NCBI GenBank assembly: GCA_964627425.1
Contig: CAZVIY010000001.1
Span: 160,128 to 224,127 of the forward strand
DNA from: an uncultured Gemmatimonadota bacterium
GTDB taxonomy: Bacteria > Gemmatimonadota > Gemmatimonadetes > Palauibacterales > Palauibacteraceae
Length of the DNA: 64,000 bases
Reading direction: 5' to 3'
Below, one piece after another: positions 3,000 to 28,050 of this stretch. A model generated the notes under the pieces. The model saw only the letters and a program-made list of their open reading frames with translations, was not told the DNA's origin and made no database searches. Made by a program: the position numbers and the translations under genes. Numbering within the stretch: the stretch's first letter is position 1; each line of letters opens with the position of its first letter.

Positions 3000-3509
3000 A
3001 TGCTGAAGCTGTCCCTATACGAACTGGGAGAAGGGCCCCTGCAGCGGGTCGGCGACGTACCCACGGACCGGGAGCCCTGGTCCGGCACCGAGCTGGAGTT
3101 CGCCGCTCCCCCGAGGGTGGACCTCCTCCTCCGGGAGACGGGGGACGGCGGGATCCACGTCACGGGCGAGCTGCGTGCCACGGTGATCGTCGACTGCCGG
3201 CGGTGCCTGAGGCCCGTCCACCGGGACCTGGAGGTGTCGGTGAACTGGCTCTTCGAGCCCGACCTTGACGAGGACGCGGAGCACGAAGGCATCTTCGCAC
3301 TGGAGGACGAGGACGAAGGCGAGCTGGACCTGGCACCGAAGATACGGGAAGAGCTCCTGCTGGAGGTCCCGGCCTATCCCCTGTGCTCGGAGGACTGCCA
3401 GGGGTTGTGCCCGGTCTGCGGCACCGATCGGAACGAGGGCTCGTGCGACTGCGACACCTCGGAGGTGGACCCCCGCTGGGGGCCCCTCCAGGACCTGGCG
3501 AGCTCCTGA
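3000..3509 (+). CDS. yceD: YceD/DUF177 family protein (large ribosomal subunit accumulation)
   Basis: 169-aa acidic ORF with the C-terminal Cys cluster CSEDCQGLCPVCGTDRNEGSCDC. It sits in the conserved position immediately upstream of rpmF-plsX. Confidence 0.85.
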   Translation: MLKLSLYELGEGPLQRVGDVPTDREPWSGTELEFAAPPRVDLLLRETGDGGIHVTGELRATVIVDCRRCLRPVHRDLEVSVNWLFEPDLDEDAEHEGIFALEDEDEGELDLAPKIREELLLEVPAYPLCSEDCQGLCPVCGTDRNEGSCDCDTSEVDPRWGPLQDLASS

Positions 3510-17808: not shown

Positions 17809-19392
17809 GTGCACGATCCCCGCGACCGTGGGCCGCACGGCCCTCGACATATCCGGCTCCTGCGGTACGGGAGGGCGCCGGGATCCCGGTCCCGGATCCT
17901 CCTGCTCCTCCTCGGGGCGTGCGCGATCCTCGCGGCCACCGCCGAGGCGCGGGCGCAGGAGGAGGACCAGGAGGCCGGGGGGGAGCCCTCGTGTGTCCTG
18001 CGGTGGGCCTCCCTCACCGATTCCACCACCAGCCGGAGCGTGGAGATCGACCCGGACCGATACCGGCATCACGTATGGCACGGGATGAGGTGGACGTGCG
18101 GTGATGCGGTGATGACCGCCGACAGCGCCGTCCAGTTTCCCGGGGATCGCGTGGAGATGGTGGGTTCGGTGACCTACCGGGACAGCGTCCGCACGCTGGA
18201 CGCACGGCAGCTCACCTACCACCAGACGACGGATCTCATCGAGGCCCGGGATTCGGTCCGCCTGGTCCGAACCGCCACCGGCTCCACCCTCGAGGCTCCC
18301 CGGGTGGACTTCTATCGCGCGGGGAACCGGGAGATCCGCCAGACGGTGGCCGAGGGAGGAACGCGCATGCACGTGGTCCCTCCCGGGGAGGAGGAAGGTG
18401 AGGGATCCGGCCGTCCCTACCGGATCACCGCAGACCGGACCGTCATCCTCCCGGACGACGAGACCGTCGCCGTCGGTGACGTGATCATCACCCGGGAGGA
18501 TCTCCGTGGCACCGGCGGCTACGGCCGCTTCGACCCCGACGGCACGGGTCTCCTCACCGAGGACCCGGTGCTCCGGGGCGAGGACTACCGTCTCACCGGG
18601 GACACGGTCTACACCACCTCGGCCGAGGGACGCATGGAGGAGGTCCGGTCGGTGGGGGCGGCACATCTGGAGAGCGGCGGGCTGGACGTGCGAGGGCCGG
18701 AGATCCGGATTGGCTTCAGCGAGGGGACGGTGAGGGATCTATGGGCCTACGGCGGCGGTGCCAGGAGCCGATCGGCGTCCCGGGTCATGCTCGGGGACTC
18801 CCTCCACATCGTCTTCGGCGAGGGCCGCCCCGATTCGGCCACGGCGGTGGGGCGGGCCGCGGCGCTGGAGCTGGAAGCCGACGAGGAGCTCCCCGTGGAC
18901 ACGGCGGCGGCCGACGAGGAGGAGGACCCGGCGGCGGAGCCCGGGGAAGGGGACGAACCCTCCCTCTTCACGGTGGACCGGGACTGGATCCGGGGCGACA
19001 CCGTCCGAGCCCGCTTCGCCCCGGCCGGCGATACCGCCACGGGCGAACCCGACGCGGACGAACCCGACGCGGAGGTCACGCTCCGGAGCCTGACGGCCCT
19101 GGGAGGGGCCCGGGCCTACTACCGCATCAGCCGGGATACGACCTCGGACCGCCGGGGCCGGAACTACCTGCTGGGACGGGAGATCGTCGTGGAGTTCCGG
19201 GAGGGTGACCCCTACCGGGTGAGGGGCCTCCAGGCCATCGGCGTGTACCTGGAGCCCGCCGGACCGGGAGCGGCCAGCAGCCCGGGCCGCCTCCCCCCCG
19301 CTGATACCGGGGCGGCGGCCCCTCCGCCGGACACCGCCGTCGCCCGGGACACGACGCTCTCCTCTCAGCCGCCCCCGGGGGAGACGAGATGA
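17809..19392 (+). CDS. lptA: OstA/LptA-family periplasmic protein, unusually long (527 aa)
   Basis: Signal peptide [21 protein letters not shown], several OstA-like segments, and acidic and Pro/Ala-rich insertions. It lies between lptC and lptB. The GTG 17809 start is uncertain. Confidence 0.65.
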
Positions 19393-20126
19393 GCGCCGAC
19401 GGCGGCTCCGTCCTCCAGGCCGAGGGCCTGGTCAAGTCCTTCGGCGGGCGGAGGGTGGTGGACGAGGTCGATCTCGCGCTCCGTCAGGGAGAGATCGTGG
19501 GACTCCTCGGGCCCAACGGGGCGGGGAAGACCACCACCTTCTACATGATCGTGGGACTCCTCCTCCCCGACGAGGGCCGGGTCTTTCTGGACGACCGCGA
19601 CCTGACCAGGATCCCCATGTACCAGCGAGCCCGCGCGGGCATCGGGTACCTCTCCCAGGAACCGTCCGTCTTCAGGAAGTTGACCGTGGAAGAGAACGTC
19701 ATGGCCATCCTGGAGACCCTGGACCTCTCCGACCGGGAGAGGGAGGAACGCCTGGAACGCCTCCTCGACGAACTCTCCATCAAGCACCTCCGGGACCACA
19801 AGGCCTACTCGCTCTCCGGGGGGGAGCGGCGGCGCCTGGAGATCACGCGTGCCCTCGTGACGGACCCCAAATTCATGCTCCTGGACGAGCCTTTCGCCGG
19901 GGTGGATCCCATCGCCGTCGACGACATCCAGCGCATCGTGGCGAGCCTGCGGGAGCGGGGGATCGGCGTCCTGATCACCGACCACAACGTGCGGGAGACG
20001 CTCTCCATCACCGATCGGGCGTATCTTCTCTTCGACGGCCGGATCCACATCGAGGGCCCGGCCGAGACGCTGGTGAACGACCCGGACGCGCGCCGGCTCT
20101 ACCTGGGAGCCGACTTCCGGCTCTGA
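19389..20126 (+). CDS. lptB: LPS export ABC transporter ATP-binding protein
   Basis: Walker [10 protein letters not shown], signature [11 protein letters not shown] and Walker [13 protein letters not shown] overlap with lptA. rpoN is downstream. Confidence 0.93.
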
Positions 20127-20221
20127 GTCACCGGGGAGGGCCCCCTCCTGTTCCCCCTGCCGGCCCGATGGGAACCCCCTCCCGGTCCGGACCGCCAGGA
20201 CCGGGGAACGGTACGATCACC

Positions 20222-20237
20222 TGGCACAAGCCTTGCT
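20222..20237 (+). promoter_or_regulatory. sigma54 (-24/-12) promoter TGGCAC-N5-TTGCT upstream of rpoN
   Basis: The sequence cCTGGCACaagccTTGCTa is an exact match to TGGCAC-N5-TTGCW. It is intergenic, on the + strand, about 90 nt upstream of the rpoN ATG. Confidence 0.7.
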
Positions 20238-20327
20238 AGGAGCCCGCGTCTCTCCTAGGTTGTACCGGACATGTGGCATCTTCGGGGGCCGGTTCGCCGG
20301 CCTCACCTCCAATCCGACCACGAGCCG

Positions 20328-21761
20328 ATGGCCGAACTGAAGAGCGGTCTCTCCCAGAAGGTCGAGACCAAGCAGGAGATGAAGGTCAATCCTCGCCTGT
20401 ACCAGGCGATGGATCTCCTGTACATGCCGCTCATGGACCTCCGCCAGCACCTGAAACAGGAGCTGGTCTCCAATCCCTTCCTGGACCTCGTCGAGCTGGG
20501 CGAGGAGGACGACGTCCTGGAGGAGGAGGAACTGGAGGAGGAGGAGATCGACTGGGAGGAGATCCTCCTGAACGGCTTCGACGCCGGAGGACGGAAGCAG
20601 GAGTACGAGGAGAAGGAGTTCTATCGCCCCACACCCCGGGCCACGTCGGACCTGTGGGATCACCTCCGGGACCAGCTGAAGCTCCTGCGGACCACCCCCC
20701 GCCAGACCCTCCTGGGCGAGGAGATCATCGGCAACATCGATCGGGAGGGATTCCTCACCTGCTCCCTGGAGGAGGTGGTGGAGGCGGCCAACGAATTCCT
20801 GGAGGAGACGGAGAACGAGGCGTGGGAGGAGACCGAGCCGTTCTCCCTCGCCGAGGCCGAGCGGATGCTCGAGGTCATCCAGGACTTCGAGCCCAGCGGC
20901 ATCGGGGCCCGGGACCTGCGGGAATGCATCCTCATCCAGCTCCGTGACCGGGGGGAGACGGACAGCCTCACCTATCGGATCGTCCGCGACGACTTCGAGG
21001 AGCTGGTCAACCACCGCTGGAGCGAGATCTCCAAGACGTACGGGATCTCGGCGAAGGAGGTCCAGGAGGCGGCCGATTCCATCTCACGGCTGGATCCGAA
21101 GCCGGGGCTGAAGTACTCGGACGAGGACGACGAGTACGTGATCCCGGACCTCATCGTGGAGAAGATCGACGGCGACTACTACACCTTCCACAACGACTCC
21201 AGCCTCCCCCGTCTGAAGCTCTCCAAGAGCTACCGCGAGGTGGCCAAGAACAAGGGGCAGTTCTCCGGGGAGAACAAGGCCTTCATCTCCAAGAAGCTCA
21301 ACAGCGCCCAGTGGATGATCCAGGCCATCGAGCAGCGGCGTCAGACCATGCTCAAGGTCATGAACTTCATCGTGGACCGCCAGCGTGACTTCTTCGAGAA
21401 GGGGGTCGAGCACCTGAAGCCCCTGACCCTCCGGGAGGTGGCCGAGCACATCGACATGCACGAGTCCACGGTCTCCCGGGTGACCAACGACAAGTACTGC
21501 CAGACGCCCCGGGGGGTGCTCCCGCTCAAGTTCTTCTTCTCCAGCGGGCTCTCCACCGACTCCGGCGGCGAGGTCTCCGCCCGGGGCGTCCGGGCCAAGA
21601 TCGAGCAGATCGTGGAGGACGAGGATTCCCACGATCCGCATACCGACCAGGAGATCGTGGACATCCTGAACGAAGAGGGGATCCAGATCGCCCGACGGAC
21701 CGTCGCCAAGTACCGCGACCAGCTCGGGATCCTCTCGGCCAGGATGCGCAAGCGGGTATGA
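20328..21761 (+). CDS. rpoN: RNA polymerase sigma-54 factor
   Basis: Region I MAELKSGLSQKVETKQEMKVNPRLYQAMDLL, an acidic region II, the HTH, and the RpoN box ARRTVAKYRDQLGI. ATG 20328 is chosen over the upstream ATG 20271 by N-terminal conservation. Confidence 0.93.
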   Translation: MAELKSGLSQKVETKQEMKVNPRLYQAMDLLYMPLMDLRQHLKQELVSNPFLDLVELGEEDDVLEEEELEEEEIDWEEILLNGFDAGGRKQEYEEKEFYRPTPRATSDLWDHLRDQLKLLRTTPRQTLLGEEIIGNIDREGFLTCSLEEVVEAANEFLEETENEAWEETEPFSLAEAERMLEVIQDFEPSGIGARDLRECILIQLRDRGETDSLTYRIVRDDFEELVNHRWSEISKTYGISAKEVQEAADSISRLDPKPGLKYSDEDDEYVIPDLIVEKIDGDYYTFHNDSSLPRLKLSKSYREVAKNKGQFSGENKAFISKKLNSAQWMIQAIEQRRQTMLKVMNFIVDRQRDFFEKGVEHLKPLTLREVAEHIDMHESTVSRVTNDKYCQTPRGVLPLKFFFSSGLSTDSGGEVSARGVRAKIEQIVEDEDSHDPHTDQEIVDILNEEGIQIARRTVAKYRDQLGILSARMRKRV

Positions 21762-22744
21762 GCGTCCCTCCTCCCCGGGAGGACGATCCGGGGAACGGAG
21801 ACGGGGCGGGGGAGGGCGGCGAGGCGGTGGACTTCAGCGTCATCGTCCCCGCCTACGACGAGGTCTCCAACATGGACGCCCTCTTCCGGGAGCTCGGCGA
21901 TGCGCTCCCCGGACTCCCCTGGAGCGGCGAGATCCTCCTGGTGGACGACGGGTCCTCCGACGGGACCCTGGAGGCCGCACGCAGCGCCGCCTCCGACGCC
22001 GGCCTGGCCGCGGTCACCTCCTTCCACCGGCACCGGCAGAACCGGGGGAAGACGGAGGCGCTCCTCACAGGAGCCCGTCATGCCCGGGGAGAGATCCTGG
22101 TGCTCTTCGACGCGGACCTCCAGCACTCGCCCTCGGAGATCCCCCGCTTCCTGCAGGAGCTGGAGAAGGGGTTCGACGTGGTCACCGGCCGGAAGGTGGG
22201 CGACTACCAGAAGCAGATGGTGTCCACCATCTACAACTGGCTGTGCCGGAAGATCTTCCGGGTGCCCGTCCACGACCTGAACGCCATGAAGGCCTTCCGG
22301 CGCGAGATCCTCGACGAGCTCCACCTGCGGAAGGACTGGCATCGCTACCTGGTGGTCCTGGCCCACGCCCGCGGCTACCGGGTCGGCGAGATCGACATCG
22401 AGCTCTTCCCGCGGCGCCACGGCCGCTCCAAGTATCGGGGTCAGGGCCGGATCCTGGTGGGGATCCTGGATCTCCTCGCGGTGTGGTTCCAGCTCGTCTT
22501 CAGCCGGAAGCCGATGCTGTTCTTCGGGATGACGGGCCTCTTCGTGCTGGTCCTCGGCGGCGCCGTGGGAGGGGCGGCCCTGTACATGAGGTTCGTCCTG
22601 GGACAGGGCTACCGGCCGCTCCTGAGTCTCATCGTCCTCCTGATCGTGGGGGGGCTCATCCTGTTCGTCGTCGGCTTCCTCGCCGAGCTGATCGCTGGCC
22701 TCCGGAACGAGATCGAGGCGCTCCGGCGCGAGATCGAGTCCTGA
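21758..22744 (+). CDS. GT2 polyprenyl-phosphate glycosyltransferase (GtrB/ArnC/CsbB-like, 2 C-terminal TM helices)
   Basis: GT-A motifs VIVPAYDE, LVDDGSSDGT and FDADLQH, plus C-terminal TM helices. ATGA overlap with the rpoN stop. Confidence 0.85.
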   Translation: MSVPPPREDDPGNGDGAGEGGEAVDFSVIVPAYDEVSNMDALFRELGDALPGLPWSGEILLVDDGSSDGTLEAARSAASDAGLAAVTSFHRHRQNRGKTEALLTGARHARGEILVLFDADLQHSPSEIPRFLQELEKGFDVVTGRKVGDYQKQMVSTIYNWLCRKIFRVPVHDLNAMKAFRREILDELHLRKDWHRYLVVLAHARGYRVGEIDIELFPRRHGRSKYRGQGRILVGILDLLAVWFQLVFSRKPMLFFGMTGLFVLVLGGAVGGAALYMRFVLGQGYRPLLSLIVLLIVGGLILFVVGFLAELIAGLRNEIEALRREIES

Positions 22745-22760
22745 GAGCCGGAGGAGACCG

Positions 22761-24380
22761 ATGACGGAGTCCAGCAGGGGAGCGGCGTCGGACCAGGGCC
22801 GTGTGTGGGGTCTCTCCCCGACGGGATGGTCGGCCCTGCTGGTGGGGATGCACGTGCTGCTGGGGCTCCTCCTGTTCGACCCCACCCTCTTCACCGGAGG
22901 CGACAACGCGGGGTACATGATCCTGGCCGACGCCCTCCGGTCGGGGGAGGGGTACGTGGACCTCTACCTCCCGGAGACGCCTCTCCATACGAAGTATCCT
23001 CCGGGCTACCCGGCGGCACTGGCGGTCCTGGGCCTGGCCGGCGGGCTCCAGCTCTTCAAGCTCTTCTCCCTGGCCTGTACGGCGACGGCGGTATGGCTCA
23101 CCCACCGGCTGGCGCGCCATCGGCTGGAGGCGGAGGCCGCCGTCGCGGCGACGGCCCTGGTGGCGGTGAATCCCGTCCTGCTGGAGTACTCCCACTACGA
23201 GCTCTCGGAGGCCTTCTTCCTGGCCGCCGTCATGGCCGCCCTGGTGGCCTATCTCACCCGGGAGCGCTGGCTCCAGGGAGCCGGGGCCTCGCTGGGAGCG
23301 TTCCTCGTCCGGACCGCGGGGCTCCCGCTCCTGGTCGCCACGTGGCTGTATCACCTGGGCCGGAGGGAGTGGCGACGACTGGGCACCACGGTGGCGGCGG
23401 GAACGGCCGTGGCCGGGGGATGGGCCCTCTACCAGACCCTGGGCGGGCGCAGCGGCGAGGGCTACCTGCAGCAGCTCGTCATGCGCAATCCCTACGACCC
23501 GGCGGCGGGCACGGCCGGGCCCGCGGAGCTGGTGACGCGCTCCGCGGGGAACCTGTGGGTCTACACGTCGGAGGTCCTCCCCCGATCCCTCCTGGGCGGC
23601 CCGCTCTCGCCGGAGGGAGGCACGGCGGCGATGGCCGTCGGCGTGACCGTGGGGGCGCTCGTCCTCACCGGTTGGCTCGCGGCGTCCCGCGACGAGCTCG
23701 GAGTGCCCGAGCTGTTCCTCCCCCTCTACGCCGGGATCATCGTCCTGTGGCCGGAGCAGTGGACGGACCGTCGGTTCCTGCTCCCCCTCCTCCCCCTGAT
23801 GCTGGTCTACGCGATCCGCGGGCTGGCGGCGGCCCGGCGCTGGGCCCCGGTGAAGGAGGGAGCCTCCATACGGTTCGCGGTGGCGGGGGCGCTCCTCCTG
23901 GCGGCACCCGGGATCGCCTCGGCGGGCCTCCAGGCGCCCGACCGGATCCGGTGCACCACCGCCCACTGGCGGGGCTCCCCGTGTGTGGATCCGGCCTGGA
24001 CGAGCTTCTACGACGCCGCCCGGTGGGCCGGGGACAACACCTCCGAGGACGCCATCGTGGCGAACCGGAAACCCCGGATCTTCTTCTGGCTCTCCGGGCG
24101 CCGCGGGGACGTCTATCCGTACAGCAGGGAGACCGGGGTCGTCCTGGAGGGCCTCCGGGAGATGGGAGCCGGGTACGTGGTGGTGGACCAGCTGTTCTCC
24201 ACCACGGCGACCTACCTCATCCCGGCCGTGCAGGCCCGGCCCGACCGGTTCGAGGCCGTCTACTCCGCCGGCTCTCCCCGGACCTTCATCCTCAGGATCC
24301 GGAGCCGGCCGCCGACGGCCGGGACCACCGGCGCCGACGATGGATCCGAGGGGGCCGCCGCCGGGCCAGCGGGGCCGTGA
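22761..24380 (+). CDS. polytopic GT-C-fold glycosyltransferase (ArnT/PMT-like)
   Basis: 539 aa with about 10 or more predicted TM segments. The first loop has a GGDNAGY...YLPETPLHTKYPPGYP motif typical of ArnT/PMT_2-type enzymes. A GGAGGAG Shine-Dalgarno sequence lies upstream. Confidence 0.7.
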   Translation: MTESSRGAASDQGRVWGLSPTGWSALLVGMHVLLGLLLFDPTLFTGGDNAGYMILADALRSGEGYVDLYLPETPLHTKYPPGYPAALAVLGLAGGLQLFKLFSLACTATAVWLTHRLARHRLEAEAAVAATALVAVNPVLLEYSHYELSEAFFLAAVMAALVAYLTRERWLQGAGASLGAFLVRTAGLPLLVATWLYHLGRREWRRLGTTVAAGTAVAGGWALYQTLGGRSGEGYLQQLVMRNPYDPAAGTAGPAELVTRSAGNLWVYTSEVLPRSLLGGPLSPEGGTAAMAVGVTVGALVLTGWLAASRDELGVPELFLPLYAGIIVLWPEQWTDRRFLLPLLPLMLVYAIRGLAAARRWAPVKEGASIRFAVAGALLLAAPGIASAGLQAPDRIRCTTAHWRGSPCVDPAWTSFYDAARWAGDNTSEDAIVANRKPRIFFWLSGRRGDVYPYSRETGVVLEGLREMGAGYVVVDQLFSTTATYLIPAVQARPDRFEAVYSAGSPRTFILRIRSRPPTAGTTGADDGSEGAAAGPAGP

Positions 24381-25711
24381 TGCGGGTCCTCCACGTGGCC
24401 ACCGCCTTCGCCCGGCACGAGGAGGACCCCATCACCCCCTGGATGGTCGAGCTCCTCCACGGCCTCCAGCGCCAGGGAGCCGAGGTGGAGGTCCTGGCAC
24501 CCTCCTACCGGGGGATGGACGATCACGTGGTCCACGGGATCCGGGTCCGGCGCTTCCGCTACGCCCCGGCCGTCCTGGAGACCCTCACCCACGAGGAGAC
24601 GACGCCGGACCGGATCCGGCACAGGCCCTGGTACGGGCTCCTCCTCCCCGCCTACCTCCTGGGCGGGCTCGTGCCGTCGGTGCGCCTGGGACTCGGCGGC
24701 TCCTACGACGTGGTCCACGTCCACTGGCCCATGCCCCATGCCCTCTTCGGGTCCGCCCTGCGCCTCGCCTCCCGCGGGCGCACGACAGTCGTCTCCAGCT
24801 TCTACAGCGTGGGCCTCACCTGGGTGGAGCATCGACTCCGGTGGCTCCGGCCGCTGCTGGCCTGGTCGGCCCGGAGCGCTGACGCCCTCACCGCCAACTC
24901 CACGGCCACGGCGGACAAGGTCCGGCGGCTCGTGGACACCCCGGTTCGGGTGGTCCCCTCGCCGGCCAGCTTCGGCGAGGGGGAGGGGAGGGGGGCGGAG
25001 GGTAGCGGTGACGGGGGAGCCGGCCAGGAGCCGGCCCGGCCCCCGCTGGACGGGAACGGGCCGGTGGAGCTGCTCTTCGTGGGCCGTCTGGTCGAGCGAA
25101 AAGGGGTCGAGTACCTTGTGCGCGCTCTCCCCCGAATCCTGGAGGAGCGGCCCGCCCGGCTCACGATCGTCGGGGAAGGGGAGTGGGAAGAGGAGATCCG
25201 GAGGGCCGTCGCCGACTGCGGGGTGGGTCGCCGGGTGAGGCTGACGGGATACGTCTCCCGGGAGCGCCTGAAGGAGCTCTACCGGACCTCCGACCTCTTC
25301 GTCCTCCCGGCGGTCGTGGACGAAAAGGGCGACACGGAGGGACTGGGGGTGGTCCTGCTGGAGGCCCTCCTGGCCGGGCGGCCGGTGGTGGCGTCGGCGG
25401 CCGGAGGCATCGTGGACATCGTGAAGCCGGGTCGGACGGGTTGGCTCGTACCGCCCGGAGACCCGGAAGCCCTGGCGCGGGCCGTCCTGGAAGCGGCCCG
25501 CGATCCGGAGGAGGCCCGGCGGCGGGCGGCAGAAGGGAAGCGACACGTCCTCGAGCACTTCTCTGCCGATCGCATCGCAGGGGAGCTCCTGGAGGTCTAC
25601 CGGAGGGCCTCCGGGTCCCGCCGGACCCCCGGGCCGACCGCAGGCGGCGCCGGCGGGAACGCCCGCCGCCGCGGCGACGGACGCCGAACCGAGGAAGGCG
25701 GAGACCCATGA
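24380..25711 (+). CDS. GT4 family glycosyltransferase
   Basis: N-terminus MRVLHVATAF... and a C-terminal GT-B motif FVLPAVVDEKGDTEGLGVVLLEALLAGRPVVAS. The start overlaps the upstream stop (TGATG). Confidence 0.88.
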   Translation: MRVLHVATAFARHEEDPITPWMVELLHGLQRQGAEVEVLAPSYRGMDDHVVHGIRVRRFRYAPAVLETLTHEETTPDRIRHRPWYGLLLPAYLLGGLVPSVRLGLGGSYDVVHVHWPMPHALFGSALRLASRGRTTVVSSFYSVGLTWVEHRLRWLRPLLAWSARSADALTANSTATADKVRRLVDTPVRVVPSPASFGEGEGRGAEGSGDGGAGQEPARPPLDGNGPVELLFVGRLVERKGVEYLVRALPRILEERPARLTIVGEGEWEEEIRRAVADCGVGRRVRLTGYVSRERLKELYRTSDLFVLPAVVDEKGDTEGLGVVLLEALLAGRPVVASAAGGIVDIVKPGRTGWLVPPGDPEALARAVLEAARDPEEARRRAAEGKRHVLEHFSADRIAGELLEVYRRASGSRRTPGPTAGGAGGNARRRGDGRRTEEGGDP

Positions 25712-28050
25712 CCGAGACGCCGGACACCGGGCGGTCGACGACGAGACCGGCCGATCGCTGGATCCCGTGGATCTACACGGCCGGGGTGCTGGTCCTGGCG
25801 CTGGCCTTCTACCGGGAGTTCGTCTTCCAGCCCGGGCGCATGCTCTTCGGCACGGACATGCTCGACCAGGCCTACCAGCTCCGGGAGTTCGGGCTCACCG
25901 AGGTCCGGGAGGGACGGGGCGTCCCCCTCTGGAACCCGTTCGTCTACGGAGGGCTCCCGTATCTCGCCATCCTCCCCGGTCCCGTGTTCTACCCCACGAG
26001 TCTGCTCTACCTCCTCATGCCCCTCTACCGGGCCATCGGATGGACCTTCGTGATCCACACCTTCCTGGCGGGGGGGATCGGCTACTTCGCTGCTCGCCGG
26101 TTCCGCCTGGATCGCCAGGCGGCGGCCGTCACGGGGCTGGCGTTCATGTTCACCGGCTACGTGGTCTCCCTCCTGTACGGCGGCCACGACGGGCGGATGT
26201 TCGCCATGATCCTCTTTCCCCTGGTCCTGGCCCTGGTGGAGGAGGGCCTGGAGCGGGGGCGGTACCCGTGGTTCCTGGCCGCGGGGATGGTCATGGGCCT
26301 GCAGATCCTCACCCCGCACGCCCAGGTGATGTACTACTCGTCGCTGATGGTGGCGGCGTTCGCGGCGTTCAGGCTCTGGGAGCGCTGGGAGGAGACGGAC
26401 CGGCCCGCCGAGCTCCTCCGGCCGGCGGGCTACGTGGCGTCCGCGTTCCTGGTGGCGGCGGCCGTGGGAGCGGTCCAGATCCTTCCCACCCTGGGGATGA
26501 TGGAGCACGGCGTCCGGGGCGGAGGAACGGGAGGGTACGAGTTCGCGTCCTCGTGGGCTCTCCCCCCGCAGGAGCTGACCGCCCTGGTGCTGCCCGACCT
26601 GGTGGGATCCTTGGACACCTACTGGGGATCGAATCCCTTCAAGCTGCACACCGAGTACCTGGGGGCGGTCCCGCTGGCGCTGGCGGTCCTCGGGGCGGCG
26701 GCACGGATCCGCCGCCGAACGATCTGGTTCCTCGTCGGCGCCTCGACCCTGGGGATCCTCTTCTCCCTGGGCGCGGCGACGCCGGTCCACAGGGTCGCCT
26801 ACGAGATCGTGCCGCTGGTCGACCGGTTCAGGGCGCCGGCCATGATGCTCGGTCCGGTCTCCTTCCTGATCTGCCTGCTGGCCGGCCACGGCTGGCAGGC
26901 GGTCCTCGACCGCCGCCGGGAGGAGGAGGGCGACGGGACGGCGATCCCGTGGGCATGGGCCTGGACCCTCTCGACGCCGGTCCTCCTCCTGGCCCTGGCG
27001 GCCGCCCTCGCCCCGGAGTCCCTCCAGCGGTGGGTTCACGTCGGCTGGTACCCCTCGGGTTGGGAGCGAAGCCCGGACCAGGCATCCGTCGCCGCGCTGC
27101 GGGCCAACGGCTGGCTCGTGCTGGTGGGCTGGGGCGCGGCCCTCGGATCCGGGTGGGCCGTGGCTCGCCGCCGGGTGGGCACCTGGATCGTCCTCGTCCC
27201 CCTCGTGCTCCTGGTGGGCGAGCTGTGGCGGGTGGACGCCCGCTACCTGGAGACGGCGGACCCGGAGCGCCAGTTCAGCTCCGACGCGGTGGTGGACAGG
27301 ATGCAGGAGGGCCTCGGGTCGGGCGAGCGGGCGTTCCCGCTGGAGCGCTCCTACGGCCCGAACGAGCTCATGTACTGGGACGTCCCCTCCGTCACCGGGA
27401 GCCAGAACTTCCGGCTGGCCTGGTACGACCGCCTGGTCGGCGGCGTCTCCTACGAGAACCTCATGAGCCGTCCCGTCCTGTGGCAGCTCCTGGACGTCCG
27501 CTATCTCACCACTCGCTCCGAAGTCCAGACGCCGCTCCTGGAGCCCGTCGCGCGGAGCGGACGCGCCCGGCTCTACCGGGTGGTCAGGGATGCGCCCCAC
27601 GCCTTCTTCCCCCGGGAGATCGTGGGAGCGAGCGACACGGCCGAGGCCCTGCGGCGTACCCTCGATCTGGAATCCCACGCGGCGGCCGCGGTGGTGGACG
27701 CCGACGCCCCCCTCCCTCCGGCAGGGGAGGGGGAGGCACGGCTGGAGCGGCTCGAAGCCGACGGTCTCGAGCTGACGGTCCGGGCCCGGGAGCGCGGCCT
27801 CCTGGTGGTCTCGGAGGTGTATCATCCGAACTGGAAGGCGACCCTCGACGGCCGGGAGATCCCCGTCCACCGGGTGAACGTGGCCCTCCGGGGTGTCGTG
27901 GTGCCCGAGGGGACCCACCGGCTGGAGTTCCGCTACGAGTCCGGGCTGTACCGGGCGGGGCTGGCCATCACGTCGGCGGGGGGAGGGATCGGGGCGGCGG
28001 CCCTCCTGATCTGGGCCGTGGCCGGCGTGCGGCGCCGCCGCGCCGACTGA
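25708..28050 (+). CDS. YfhO-family membrane glycosyltransferase (GT-C)
   Basis: 780 aa and polytopic. It has an N-terminal FGTDMLDQAYQLREF...PLWNPFVYGGLPY motif and the YfhO-type C-terminus VSEVYHPNWKATLDGREIPVHRVNVALRGVVVPEGTHRLEFRY followed by a final TM. ATGA overlap with the GT4 gene. Confidence 0.8.
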   Translation: MTETPDTGRSTTRPADRWIPWIYTAGVLVLALAFYREFVFQPGRMLFGTDMLDQAYQLREFGLTEVREGRGVPLWNPFVYGGLPYLAILPGPVFYPTSLLYLLMPLYRAIGWTFVIHTFLAGGIGYFAARRFRLDRQAAAVTGLAFMFTGYVVSLLYGGHDGRMFAMILFPLVLALVEEGLERGRYPWFLAAGMVMGLQILTPHAQVMYYSSLMVAAFAAFRLWERWEETDRPAELLRPAGYVASAFLVAAAVGAVQILPTLGMMEHGVRGGGTGGYEFASSWALPPQELTALVLPDLVGSLDTYWGSNPFKLHTEYLGAVPLALAVLGAAARIRRRTIWFLVGASTLGILFSLGAATPVHRVAYEIVPLVDRFRAPAMMLGPVSFLICLLAGHGWQAVLDRRREEEGDGTAIPWAWAWTLSTPVLLLALAAALAPESLQRWVHVGWYPSGWERSPDQASVAALRANGWLVLVGWGAALGSGWAVARRRVGTWIVLVPLVLLVGELWRVDARYLETADPERQFSSDAVVDRMQEGLGSGERAFPLERSYGPNELMYWDVPSVTGSQNFRLAWYDRLVGGVSYENLMSRPVLWQLLDVRYLTTRSEVQTPLLEPVARSGRARLYRVVRDAPHAFFPREIVGASDTAEALRRTLDLESHAAAAVVDADAPLPPAGEGEARLERLEADGLELTVRARERGLLVVSEVYHPNWKATLDGREIPVHRVNVALRGVVVPEGTHRLEFRYESGLYRAGLAITSAGGGIGAAALLIWAVAGVRRRRAD

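Follow-up and report, generated by a model that had tools for sequence, protein, structure and literature searches.

Judging from the sequences of 87 distinct rpoN-upstream regions, predicted sigma-54 recognition sites are a clade-wide feature of the lptB-rpoN spacer in Palauibacterales-like Gemmatimonadota, where they occur in either orientation. The copy found in the window (the whole 64-kb stretch of DNA that was analyzed) is a candidate operator at which the sigma-54 closed complex would negatively autoregulate rpoN, a reading to which we assign a probability of about 0.5; the site very probably mediates feedback on rpoN, more likely as an operator than as a simple promoter. We infer both the binding of sigma-54 at positions 20222-20237 and the sign of the feedback on rpoN. 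Self-repression by the closed complex and control by an enhancer-binding protein are the two live explanations for this element.

The sigma-54 site of the window and its surroundings

The site occupies positions 20222-20237 of the plus strand and is composed of a -24 element TGGCAC (20222-20227), the spacer AAGCC and a -12 element TTGCT (20233-20237); the plus strand reads cCTGGCACaagccTTGCTagg at this place. All 11 specified bases of the consensus TGGCAC-N5-TTGCW are matched (11/11), and the GG and GC doublets are 10 nt apart. The intergenic region in which the site is embedded measures 201 bp, from the end of the lptB stop codon at 20126 to the rpoN ATG at 20328, which is located 106 nt downstream of the site on the same strand. 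An exact match to TGGCACNNNNNTTGCW occurs once in the 64-kb window and in 0 of 100 dinucleotide shuffles. Based on base composition (71% GC), 0.032 exact sites per window are expected when both strands are counted, and 5e-5 in the plus strand of the lptB-rpoN spacer, while sites with two mismatches are found in the window at the chance level (9 observed, 9.9 expected). The exact TGGCAC-N5-TTGCT element that the earlier note had placed between lptB and rpoN is borne out as the sole exact consensus in the window, and the TGGCAC hexamers at 3331 and 24495 are indeed without TTGC at the right spacing. A chance occurrence of the predicted site is ruled out. If the site fired as a sigma-54 promoter, transcription would be predicted to start at 20247-20249 on the plus strand, given the usual 11-13 nt from the -12 GC to the start point.

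We examined the conservation of the spacer in L161, a locus whose RpoN is 98% identical to that of the window; it was reached through a protein cluster, exact look-ups of RpoN (with either start) and of LptB having returned nothing. L161 is the only close relative in the genome and metagenome collections searched, and no relatives closer than L161 and a group with 80% RpoN identity were found in them. The lptB-rpoN spacers of the window and L161 differ at 43 of 201 positions (21%), compared with 9-16% at third-codon positions. The sigma-54 site carries 0 changes in 16 positions (P=0.019 under random placement of differences), and it is part of a longer conserved block on the plus strand, 20202-20240, which includes the 20 nt upstream of the site and the CTAGG downstream of it and has one substitution in 39 nt (permutation P 0.0007). 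A second block, in the 5' leader of rpoN (20283-20321, plus strand), is identical in L161 over its 39 nt, and about 40% of the positions between the two blocks differ. Because the site is unchanged in L161 while the spacer diverges faster than synonymous sites, the comparison indicates that the predicted site is under purifying selection in the lineage of the window. The leader block contains a hairpin, GGCCGG-TTCG-CCGGCC (20287-20302), followed by CACCTCC (20304-20310). The latter motif resembles the 16S rRNA 3' end, in the manner of an anti-Shine-Dalgarno sequence, and the rpoN ATG of the window is without an obvious ribosome-binding site. A scan of the whole window against Rfam returned no matches at the gathering score.

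The upstream neighbor of rpoN is lptB (19389-20126, plus strand), which encodes an ABC ATPase recognized by the Pfam ABC_tran domain and is 74-91% identical to the gene preceding rpoN in relatives. The rpoN gene itself (20328-21761, plus strand) encodes a protein of 477 amino acids with all three sigma-54 domains of Pfam (Sigma54_AID, Sigma54_CBD and Sigma54_DBD) and the canonical RpoN box ARRTVAKYR, and the predicted sigma-54 of this organism has canonical DNA-binding determinants. The start at 20328 is supported by a 100% identical NCBI protein of 477 aa (P0001) and by homologs, many of them with a strong Shine-Dalgarno sequence, that align from residue 1; on the same grounds we rejected the in-frame upstream ATG at 20271 as the start of rpoN. 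The frame from 20271 to 20327 is open in both the window and L161, with two synonymous and two non-synonymous codon changes between them, and 20271 is a possible alternative start.

Downstream of rpoN, a gene assigned by Pfam to family-2 glycosyltransferases (GT2; 21758-22744, plus strand) begins within the end of rpoN, its start overlapping the rpoN stop (ATGA, 21758-21761), and its position after rpoN is conserved across the phylum. The earlier note had described rpoN as translationally coupled to the glycosyltransferase genes that follow it. The 4-nt overlap is indeed present in the window, in L161 and in some relatives, but many relatives have a gap of 20-100 nt, and translational coupling is therefore not a conserved feature; co-transcription of rpoN with the glycosyltransferase gene is plausible. 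The gene order lptC, a 527-aa LptA-like ORF, lptB, rpoN, GT2 and a PMT_2-like gene was kept in every locus fetched, and lptC was confirmed by Pfam in the window. The 527-aa ORF (17809-19392) is encoded between lptC and lptB, at the expected position of lptA, and has only a sub-threshold LptA/LptD_N match in Pfam (E=0.026) and 26-41% identity across the phylum. We also observed that the order rpoN, GT2 and a PMT_2/GT87-like gene (20328-28050 in the window, which additionally has a YfhO-like gene) is conserved across Gemmatimonadota, with glycosyltransferase-type genes replacing the hpf/ptsN that follow rpoN in proteobacteria.

The hairpin reported by the earlier note after the lptB stop exists (GGAGGG/CCCTCC). 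No terminator-like site was found in the interval 19900-20500, including the stretch after lptB, and because no terminator follows lptB, read-through from this gene can supply basal rpoN expression.

Sigma-54 sites upstream of rpoN across the clade

In order to compare the lptB-rpoN spacer across relatives, which are labelled Candidatus Palauibacterales or marine benthic group, we took rpoN-upstream regions from 160 genome and metagenome loci and obtained 87 distinct regions. The lptB-rpoN spacers of the clade, which are otherwise scrambled and amount to 10.4 kb, contain 36 sites with at most one mismatch to the consensus (10 exact and 26 with one mismatch). The flanking DNA (512 kb) contains no exact site and two sites with one mismatch, and only three sites with at most one mismatch are found outside rpoN upstream regions in 816 kb. 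Consensus-grade sigma-54 sites are thus approximately 900-fold enriched upstream of rpoN in Palauibacterales-like Gemmatimonadota.

The orientation of these sites varies. A minus-strand site with at most one mismatch, pointing in the direction opposite to rpoN, is present in 57 of the 87 distinct regions, where the plus strand reads TGCAAGGGG[CT]GTGCC[AG]. Plus-strand sites of the same quality are found in six of the 87 regions, five of which also carry a facing minus-strand site, and the window is the only region of the 87 with a plus-strand site alone. When two mismatches are allowed, plus-strand sites are found in about 19 of 87 regions, compared with about 1% expected. In L010-L061 and L086-L119, reverse-strand sites are located directly after the lptB stop (for example, at 2887-2902 in L050 and at about 2902-2917 in L030). 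The different architecture types follow the RpoN tree. In lineages with double sites the distance between the pair is 12, 23-24 or 34 nt; this variable arm spacing, together with N5 spacers that are not complementary, led us to reject an interpretation of the double sites as a palindrome for a dimeric factor or as a hairpin.

Approximately 20 further regions, of types C and D, carry a conserved plus-strand motif, TGGTACGATTCTTGTG or TGGCATATATTTTGTG, at -87 to -164 and mostly at -94 to -126, which is the position of the site of the window relative to rpoN. When the window, L161 and types C and D are aligned, the invariant columns are exactly TGG.A......TTG, and these columns are the bases contacted by sigma-54. 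In type C (L019-L058, L094 and L112), TGGTACGATTCTTGTG is found at about -95 to -105 with T instead of C at -12, and its 5-nt spacer is conserved as well, despite scrambled flanks. In the clades neighboring the window the plus-strand motifs have three mismatches, one of them a T in place of C at -12, and their affinity for sigma-54 may be low. We also asked whether TGGTACGAT, the motif of type C, could be an extended -10 box, and rejected this as inconsistent with L003 (TACGAA), L023 and L041, only the TGG...TTG core being common. A small upstream ORF in type A spacers was likewise rejected by inspection, its frame not being conserved between L030 and L025.

Some relatives depart from this picture. 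The nearest outgroup, L001/L002 (80% RpoN identity), has no recognizable site in the rpoN-upstream region, and no recognizable sigma-54 site was found upstream of rpoN in L006, L009 and L012; the proposed feedback would be dispensable, because these lineages are without a recognizable site. In Gemmatimonadales and Longimicrobiales (L060, L062, L065-L067, L069-L080 and L123-L160) the lptB stop abuts or overlaps the rpoN start and no sigma-54 site is present; rpoN lacks a separate promoter region in these distant relatives and must be transcribed together with lptB. In L014 (733-2864), and also in L024, L089, L090 and L096, lptB and rpoN are separated by an inserted operon that runs divergently on the minus strand and codes for a type I phosphodiesterase (PF01663) together with a VTT/DedA-domain membrane protein (PF09335). 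About 25-70 nt upstream of the start of this operon there is an exact sigma-54 site on the minus strand, which may be its true promoter. Since the site of the L014 group is well placed as an ordinary promoter, minus-strand sites elsewhere could be antisense promoters and not operators.

Conservation of the motif in relatives, to which the earlier note had pointed as a check, holds in one sense: the site is identical in L161 and sigma-54 sites are enriched across the clade. The exact plus-strand site, however, is confined to the window and L161. Its origin may be visible in the sequence. A relic -24-like copy, CGGTACGATCAC, is located at 20209-20220 (plus strand), 13 nt too far from the -12 element. 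The 9-mer GGTACGATC is common to the window, where it is found just upstream of TGGCAC, and to the type C motif TGGTACGATCCTTGTG of L164, which suggests that the present perfect -24 element is the product of an insertion or duplication of about 13 nt into a type C site.

Such a history raises the question of whether the site is without function and arose recently, as a side effect of a small insertion or duplication while the spacer was evolving rapidly. The restriction of the exact site to the window and L161, a nearest outgroup without any site, and signs of rearrangement in the spacer (the relic GGTACGATC copy and a local alignment to the reverse complement of type A spacers) are all in keeping with this possibility. 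It is nevertheless very improbable in our assessment, given the chance expectation of 5e-5 for the spacer, the preservation of the site in L161 between flanks more diverged than synonymous sites, and the fact that independent lineages all keep sigma-54-type sites at the rpoN-upstream locus.

A candidate operator beside the core promoter

The neighborhood of the reversed sites offers a clue to what they might do. In 38 aligned type A spacers, two blocks alone are invariant, TGCAAGGGG.GTGCC and the bases TAT within a TATNNT box, and this box is found 16-17 nt after GTGCCR in 43 of 56 regions. This arrangement in the relatives fits a sigma-70-type promoter in which the reversed -24 element serves as the -35 hexamer. 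In type C lineages GGGGTGCCA-N17-TATCTT is kept and the GCAA half is lost, as expected if GTGCCR doubles as a -35 hexamer. By inspection we rejected the idea that the TATNNT box belongs intrinsically to sigma-54 sites as their upstream portion, since plus-strand sites have no mirrored box.

In the window, the candidate sigma-70-type promoter is TTGCTA-N17-TAGGTT (20233-20261, plus strand), the -35 hexamer of which overlaps the -12 element of the sigma-54 site. The spacer holds two weak candidates, of which this one, with four of six and three of six matches, is the better, and it is kept in L161 as TTGCTA-N17-TAGCTT. The other candidate, CGGACC-18-TACGAT, was rejected, its -10 hexamer TACGAT being changed to TACGAC in L161. 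A scan for E. coli-style sigma-70 promoters in 19900-20500 found none, and TTGCTA-N17-TAGGTT fails it too. We therefore infer the location of the sigma-70-type promoter in the window, and its overlap with the sigma-54 site, from the features described above.

The sigma-54 holoenzyme forms a stable closed complex on sites of this kind and does not start transcription without an ATP-driven activator. A closed complex at 20213-20243 would cover the region needed by the housekeeping polymerase; the -35 hexamer of the candidate promoter TTGCTA-17-TAGGTT overlaps the TTGCT half of the site, and the housekeeping polymerase would be excluded from it. Read-through transcription from lptB would be hindered by this complex as well. 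Transcription of rpoN would then fall as sigma-54 rises, which is negative autoregulation, and the repression would extend to the glycosyltransferase genes downstream, probably co-transcribed with rpoN.

The reversed sites bear directly on this proposal. Sites directed away from rpoN cannot serve as its promoter. The function common to the clade would therefore be independent of orientation, and what is conserved appears to be sigma-54 binding beside the rpoN core promoter and not a sigma-54-driven rpoN transcript. Such orientation-independent conservation favors an operator and argues against a simple promoter. The earlier note had spoken of a promoter in front of rpoN; a genuine and selected sigma-54-type element is indeed there, but the designation is too specific, with an opposite-strand site in 57 of the 87 regions.

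Because it faces rpoN, the copy in the window could also fire with an activator, and the operator and activator-dependent promoter roles could coexist at this site. The second explanation takes the latter role as the principal one: an ordinary activator-dependent sigma-54 promoter would transcribe rpoN and the glycosyltransferase genes from about 20248, an enhancer-binding protein would provide conditional positive feedback, and basal sigma-54 would come from lptB read-through. Its appeal is in the perfect consensus, the correct orientation and the typical distance of 106 nt to the ATG, as well as in the lack of a terminator after lptB, which allows read-through to supply basal expression, and in the distant relatives, where rpoN, lacking a separate promoter region, has to be transcribed together with lptB. 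The excess of plus-strand sites with at most two mismatches (about 19 of 87 regions, about 1% expected) and the sigma-54 promoters predicted upstream of rpoN in many bacterial classes (PMC12316311) point in the same direction. What this explanation does not account for is the opposite orientation of the site in most relatives, and positive feedback would be an unusual design for a sigma factor dependent on a separate activator. Moreover, no gene for an enhancer-binding protein (GAFTGA motif) was found within the 64-kb window, nor did the search for an upstream activator site reveal a conserved one: upstream of the sigma-54 site a perfect inverted repeat occupies 20181-20205, but it is not kept in L161. 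On balance we regard an ordinary promoter as possible but rather unlikely.

The earlier note had also claimed a perfect 7-bp inverted repeat overlapping the -12 element, and it is present as described: CTAGGAG-N9-CTCCTAG at 20236-20258, with arms at 20236-20242 and 20252-20258, extends from the -12 element to about +10. Taken alone, a repeat of this kind is within the range of chance: when the spacer was simulated with a first-order Markov model, inverted repeats of 7 bp or longer appeared in 39% of the simulations, and in 11% such a repeat overlapped the site. The predicted hairpin is weak (-8.8 kcal/mol), and the RNA fold of the repeat region, with a z-score of -1.45, is no better than that of shuffled sequences; on these grounds we rejected a structured-RNA reading of the region. 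Nor is an intrinsic terminator found at the repeat, the stem being followed by GGUUGUACC, with no U-tract. In L161 the repeat reads CTAGGCG-N9-CGCCTAG, a compensatory double substitution that leaves it perfect and extended to 8 bp. Depending on which local substitution rate is assumed, we estimate the chance of such a change at 0.004-0.07. The inverted repeat is absent from lineages other than the window and L161. It is probably under selection in the lineage of these two sequences, and the compensatory change hints at a second layer beyond the sigma-54 site.

It could then be argued that the selected feature is mainly the conserved block together with the inverted repeat, and that the sigma-54 match contributes little. 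This feature would function either in lptB read-through transcripts, as a hairpin by which they are attenuated or processed, or as an operator bound by another dimeric regulator. The compensatory double substitution falls within a stretch that is about 40% diverged, and conservation is as high in the 20 nt preceding the -24 element as in the site, both of which suit this argument. It is hard to reconcile with a hairpin of only -8.8 kcal/mol that has no U-tract and a z-score of -1.45, or with a repeat absent from all other lineages when the core bases of the sigma-54 site are invariant across lineages, and it leaves an 11/11 consensus match at the gene for sigma-54 itself unexplained. We consider it improbable.

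Returning to the feedback operator, the observations can be combined in a more specific proposal for the clade, which we put forward tentatively and at somewhat less than even odds. In an order-level clade of marine Gemmatimonadota, the sigma-54 holoenzyme would repress its own gene through an orientation-free operator, one half-site of which doubles as the housekeeping -35 hexamer: the reversed -24 element GTGCC in most lineages and the forward -12 element TTGCT in the window. The site would have been rebuilt repeatedly by flipping, by face-to-face pairs, or by the 13-nt duplication that restored the -24 element.

Relation to known systems and significance

Negative autoregulation of rpoN is known for Bradyrhizobium japonicum rpoN2, Rhizobium etli rpoN1 and Pseudomonas putida. 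In these proteobacterial systems, as proposed here, sigma-54 limits its own gene, and the operator is presumed to be an element of the -24/-12 type close to the rpoN promoter. The Gemmatimonadota case differs in resting on comparative genomics and in an operator that changes strand between lineages, and the genes downstream of rpoN in the window are glycosyltransferases, compared with hpf/ptsN at proteobacterial rpoN loci. The rpoN of R. leguminosarum has also been reported to be negatively autoregulated (cited in PMC3538637).

The statement of the earlier note that rpoN autoregulation through sigma-54 sites is described in a few proteobacteria is too narrow. A 2025 survey describes an enrichment of sigma-54 promoters in front of rpoN in eight bacterial classes and reads it as autoregulation; such promoters are predicted in Bacilli, Clostridia, Verrucomicrobiia, Planctomycetia and alpha-, beta- and gamma-Proteobacteria, and Geobacter and Dokdonia are cited as documented cases (PMC12316311). 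The promoters predicted there resemble the site of the window in having a consensus -24/-12 element upstream of rpoN and co-oriented with it. The term Gemmatimonadota has no occurrence in the main text of the survey, and since rpoN is treated there as transcribed from sigma-54 promoters, reverse-strand sites would not be reported in it.

Sites with an orientation or position unlike that of a classical promoter have been encountered elsewhere. Chromatin immunoprecipitation (ChIP) in Salmonella, E. coli and Vibrio has revealed non-promoter, intragenic and antisense sigma-54 binding sites, for which repression, transcriptional interference and antisense RNA are among the proposed roles (PMC3844500). 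Those sites are of high affinity, and the sites of this clade are consensus-grade as judged from sequence. The ChIP sites are scattered and their function is mostly unknown, whereas the sites of the clade are concentrated at the sigma factor's own gene and are conserved at the order level.

Autoregulation of rpoN and sigma-54 sites upstream of rpoN in several classes were known already; what is new is the phylum Gemmatimonadota, the predominance of reverse-strand sites and the visible turnover in the orientation of the site. The impact is moderate, because this kind of regulation is already known and the organisms are uncultured. The exploitation of silent sigma-54 binding as repression is still largely a conjecture from ChIP maps, and the rpoN locus is a compact and testable natural example from a phylum in which regulation by sigma-54 has received almost no study. 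Comparison can separate binding from promoter function here, since the site persists across lineages even as it switches strand. The locus would also tie the dosage of sigma-54 to the phylum-wide lpt-rpoN-glycosyltransferase block, which fits the proposal that sigma-54 governs the cell exterior (PMC3162934). If the operator reading is true, these spacers would be the clearest comparative case for closed-complex formation, and not transcription, as the selected activity of a -24/-12 element.
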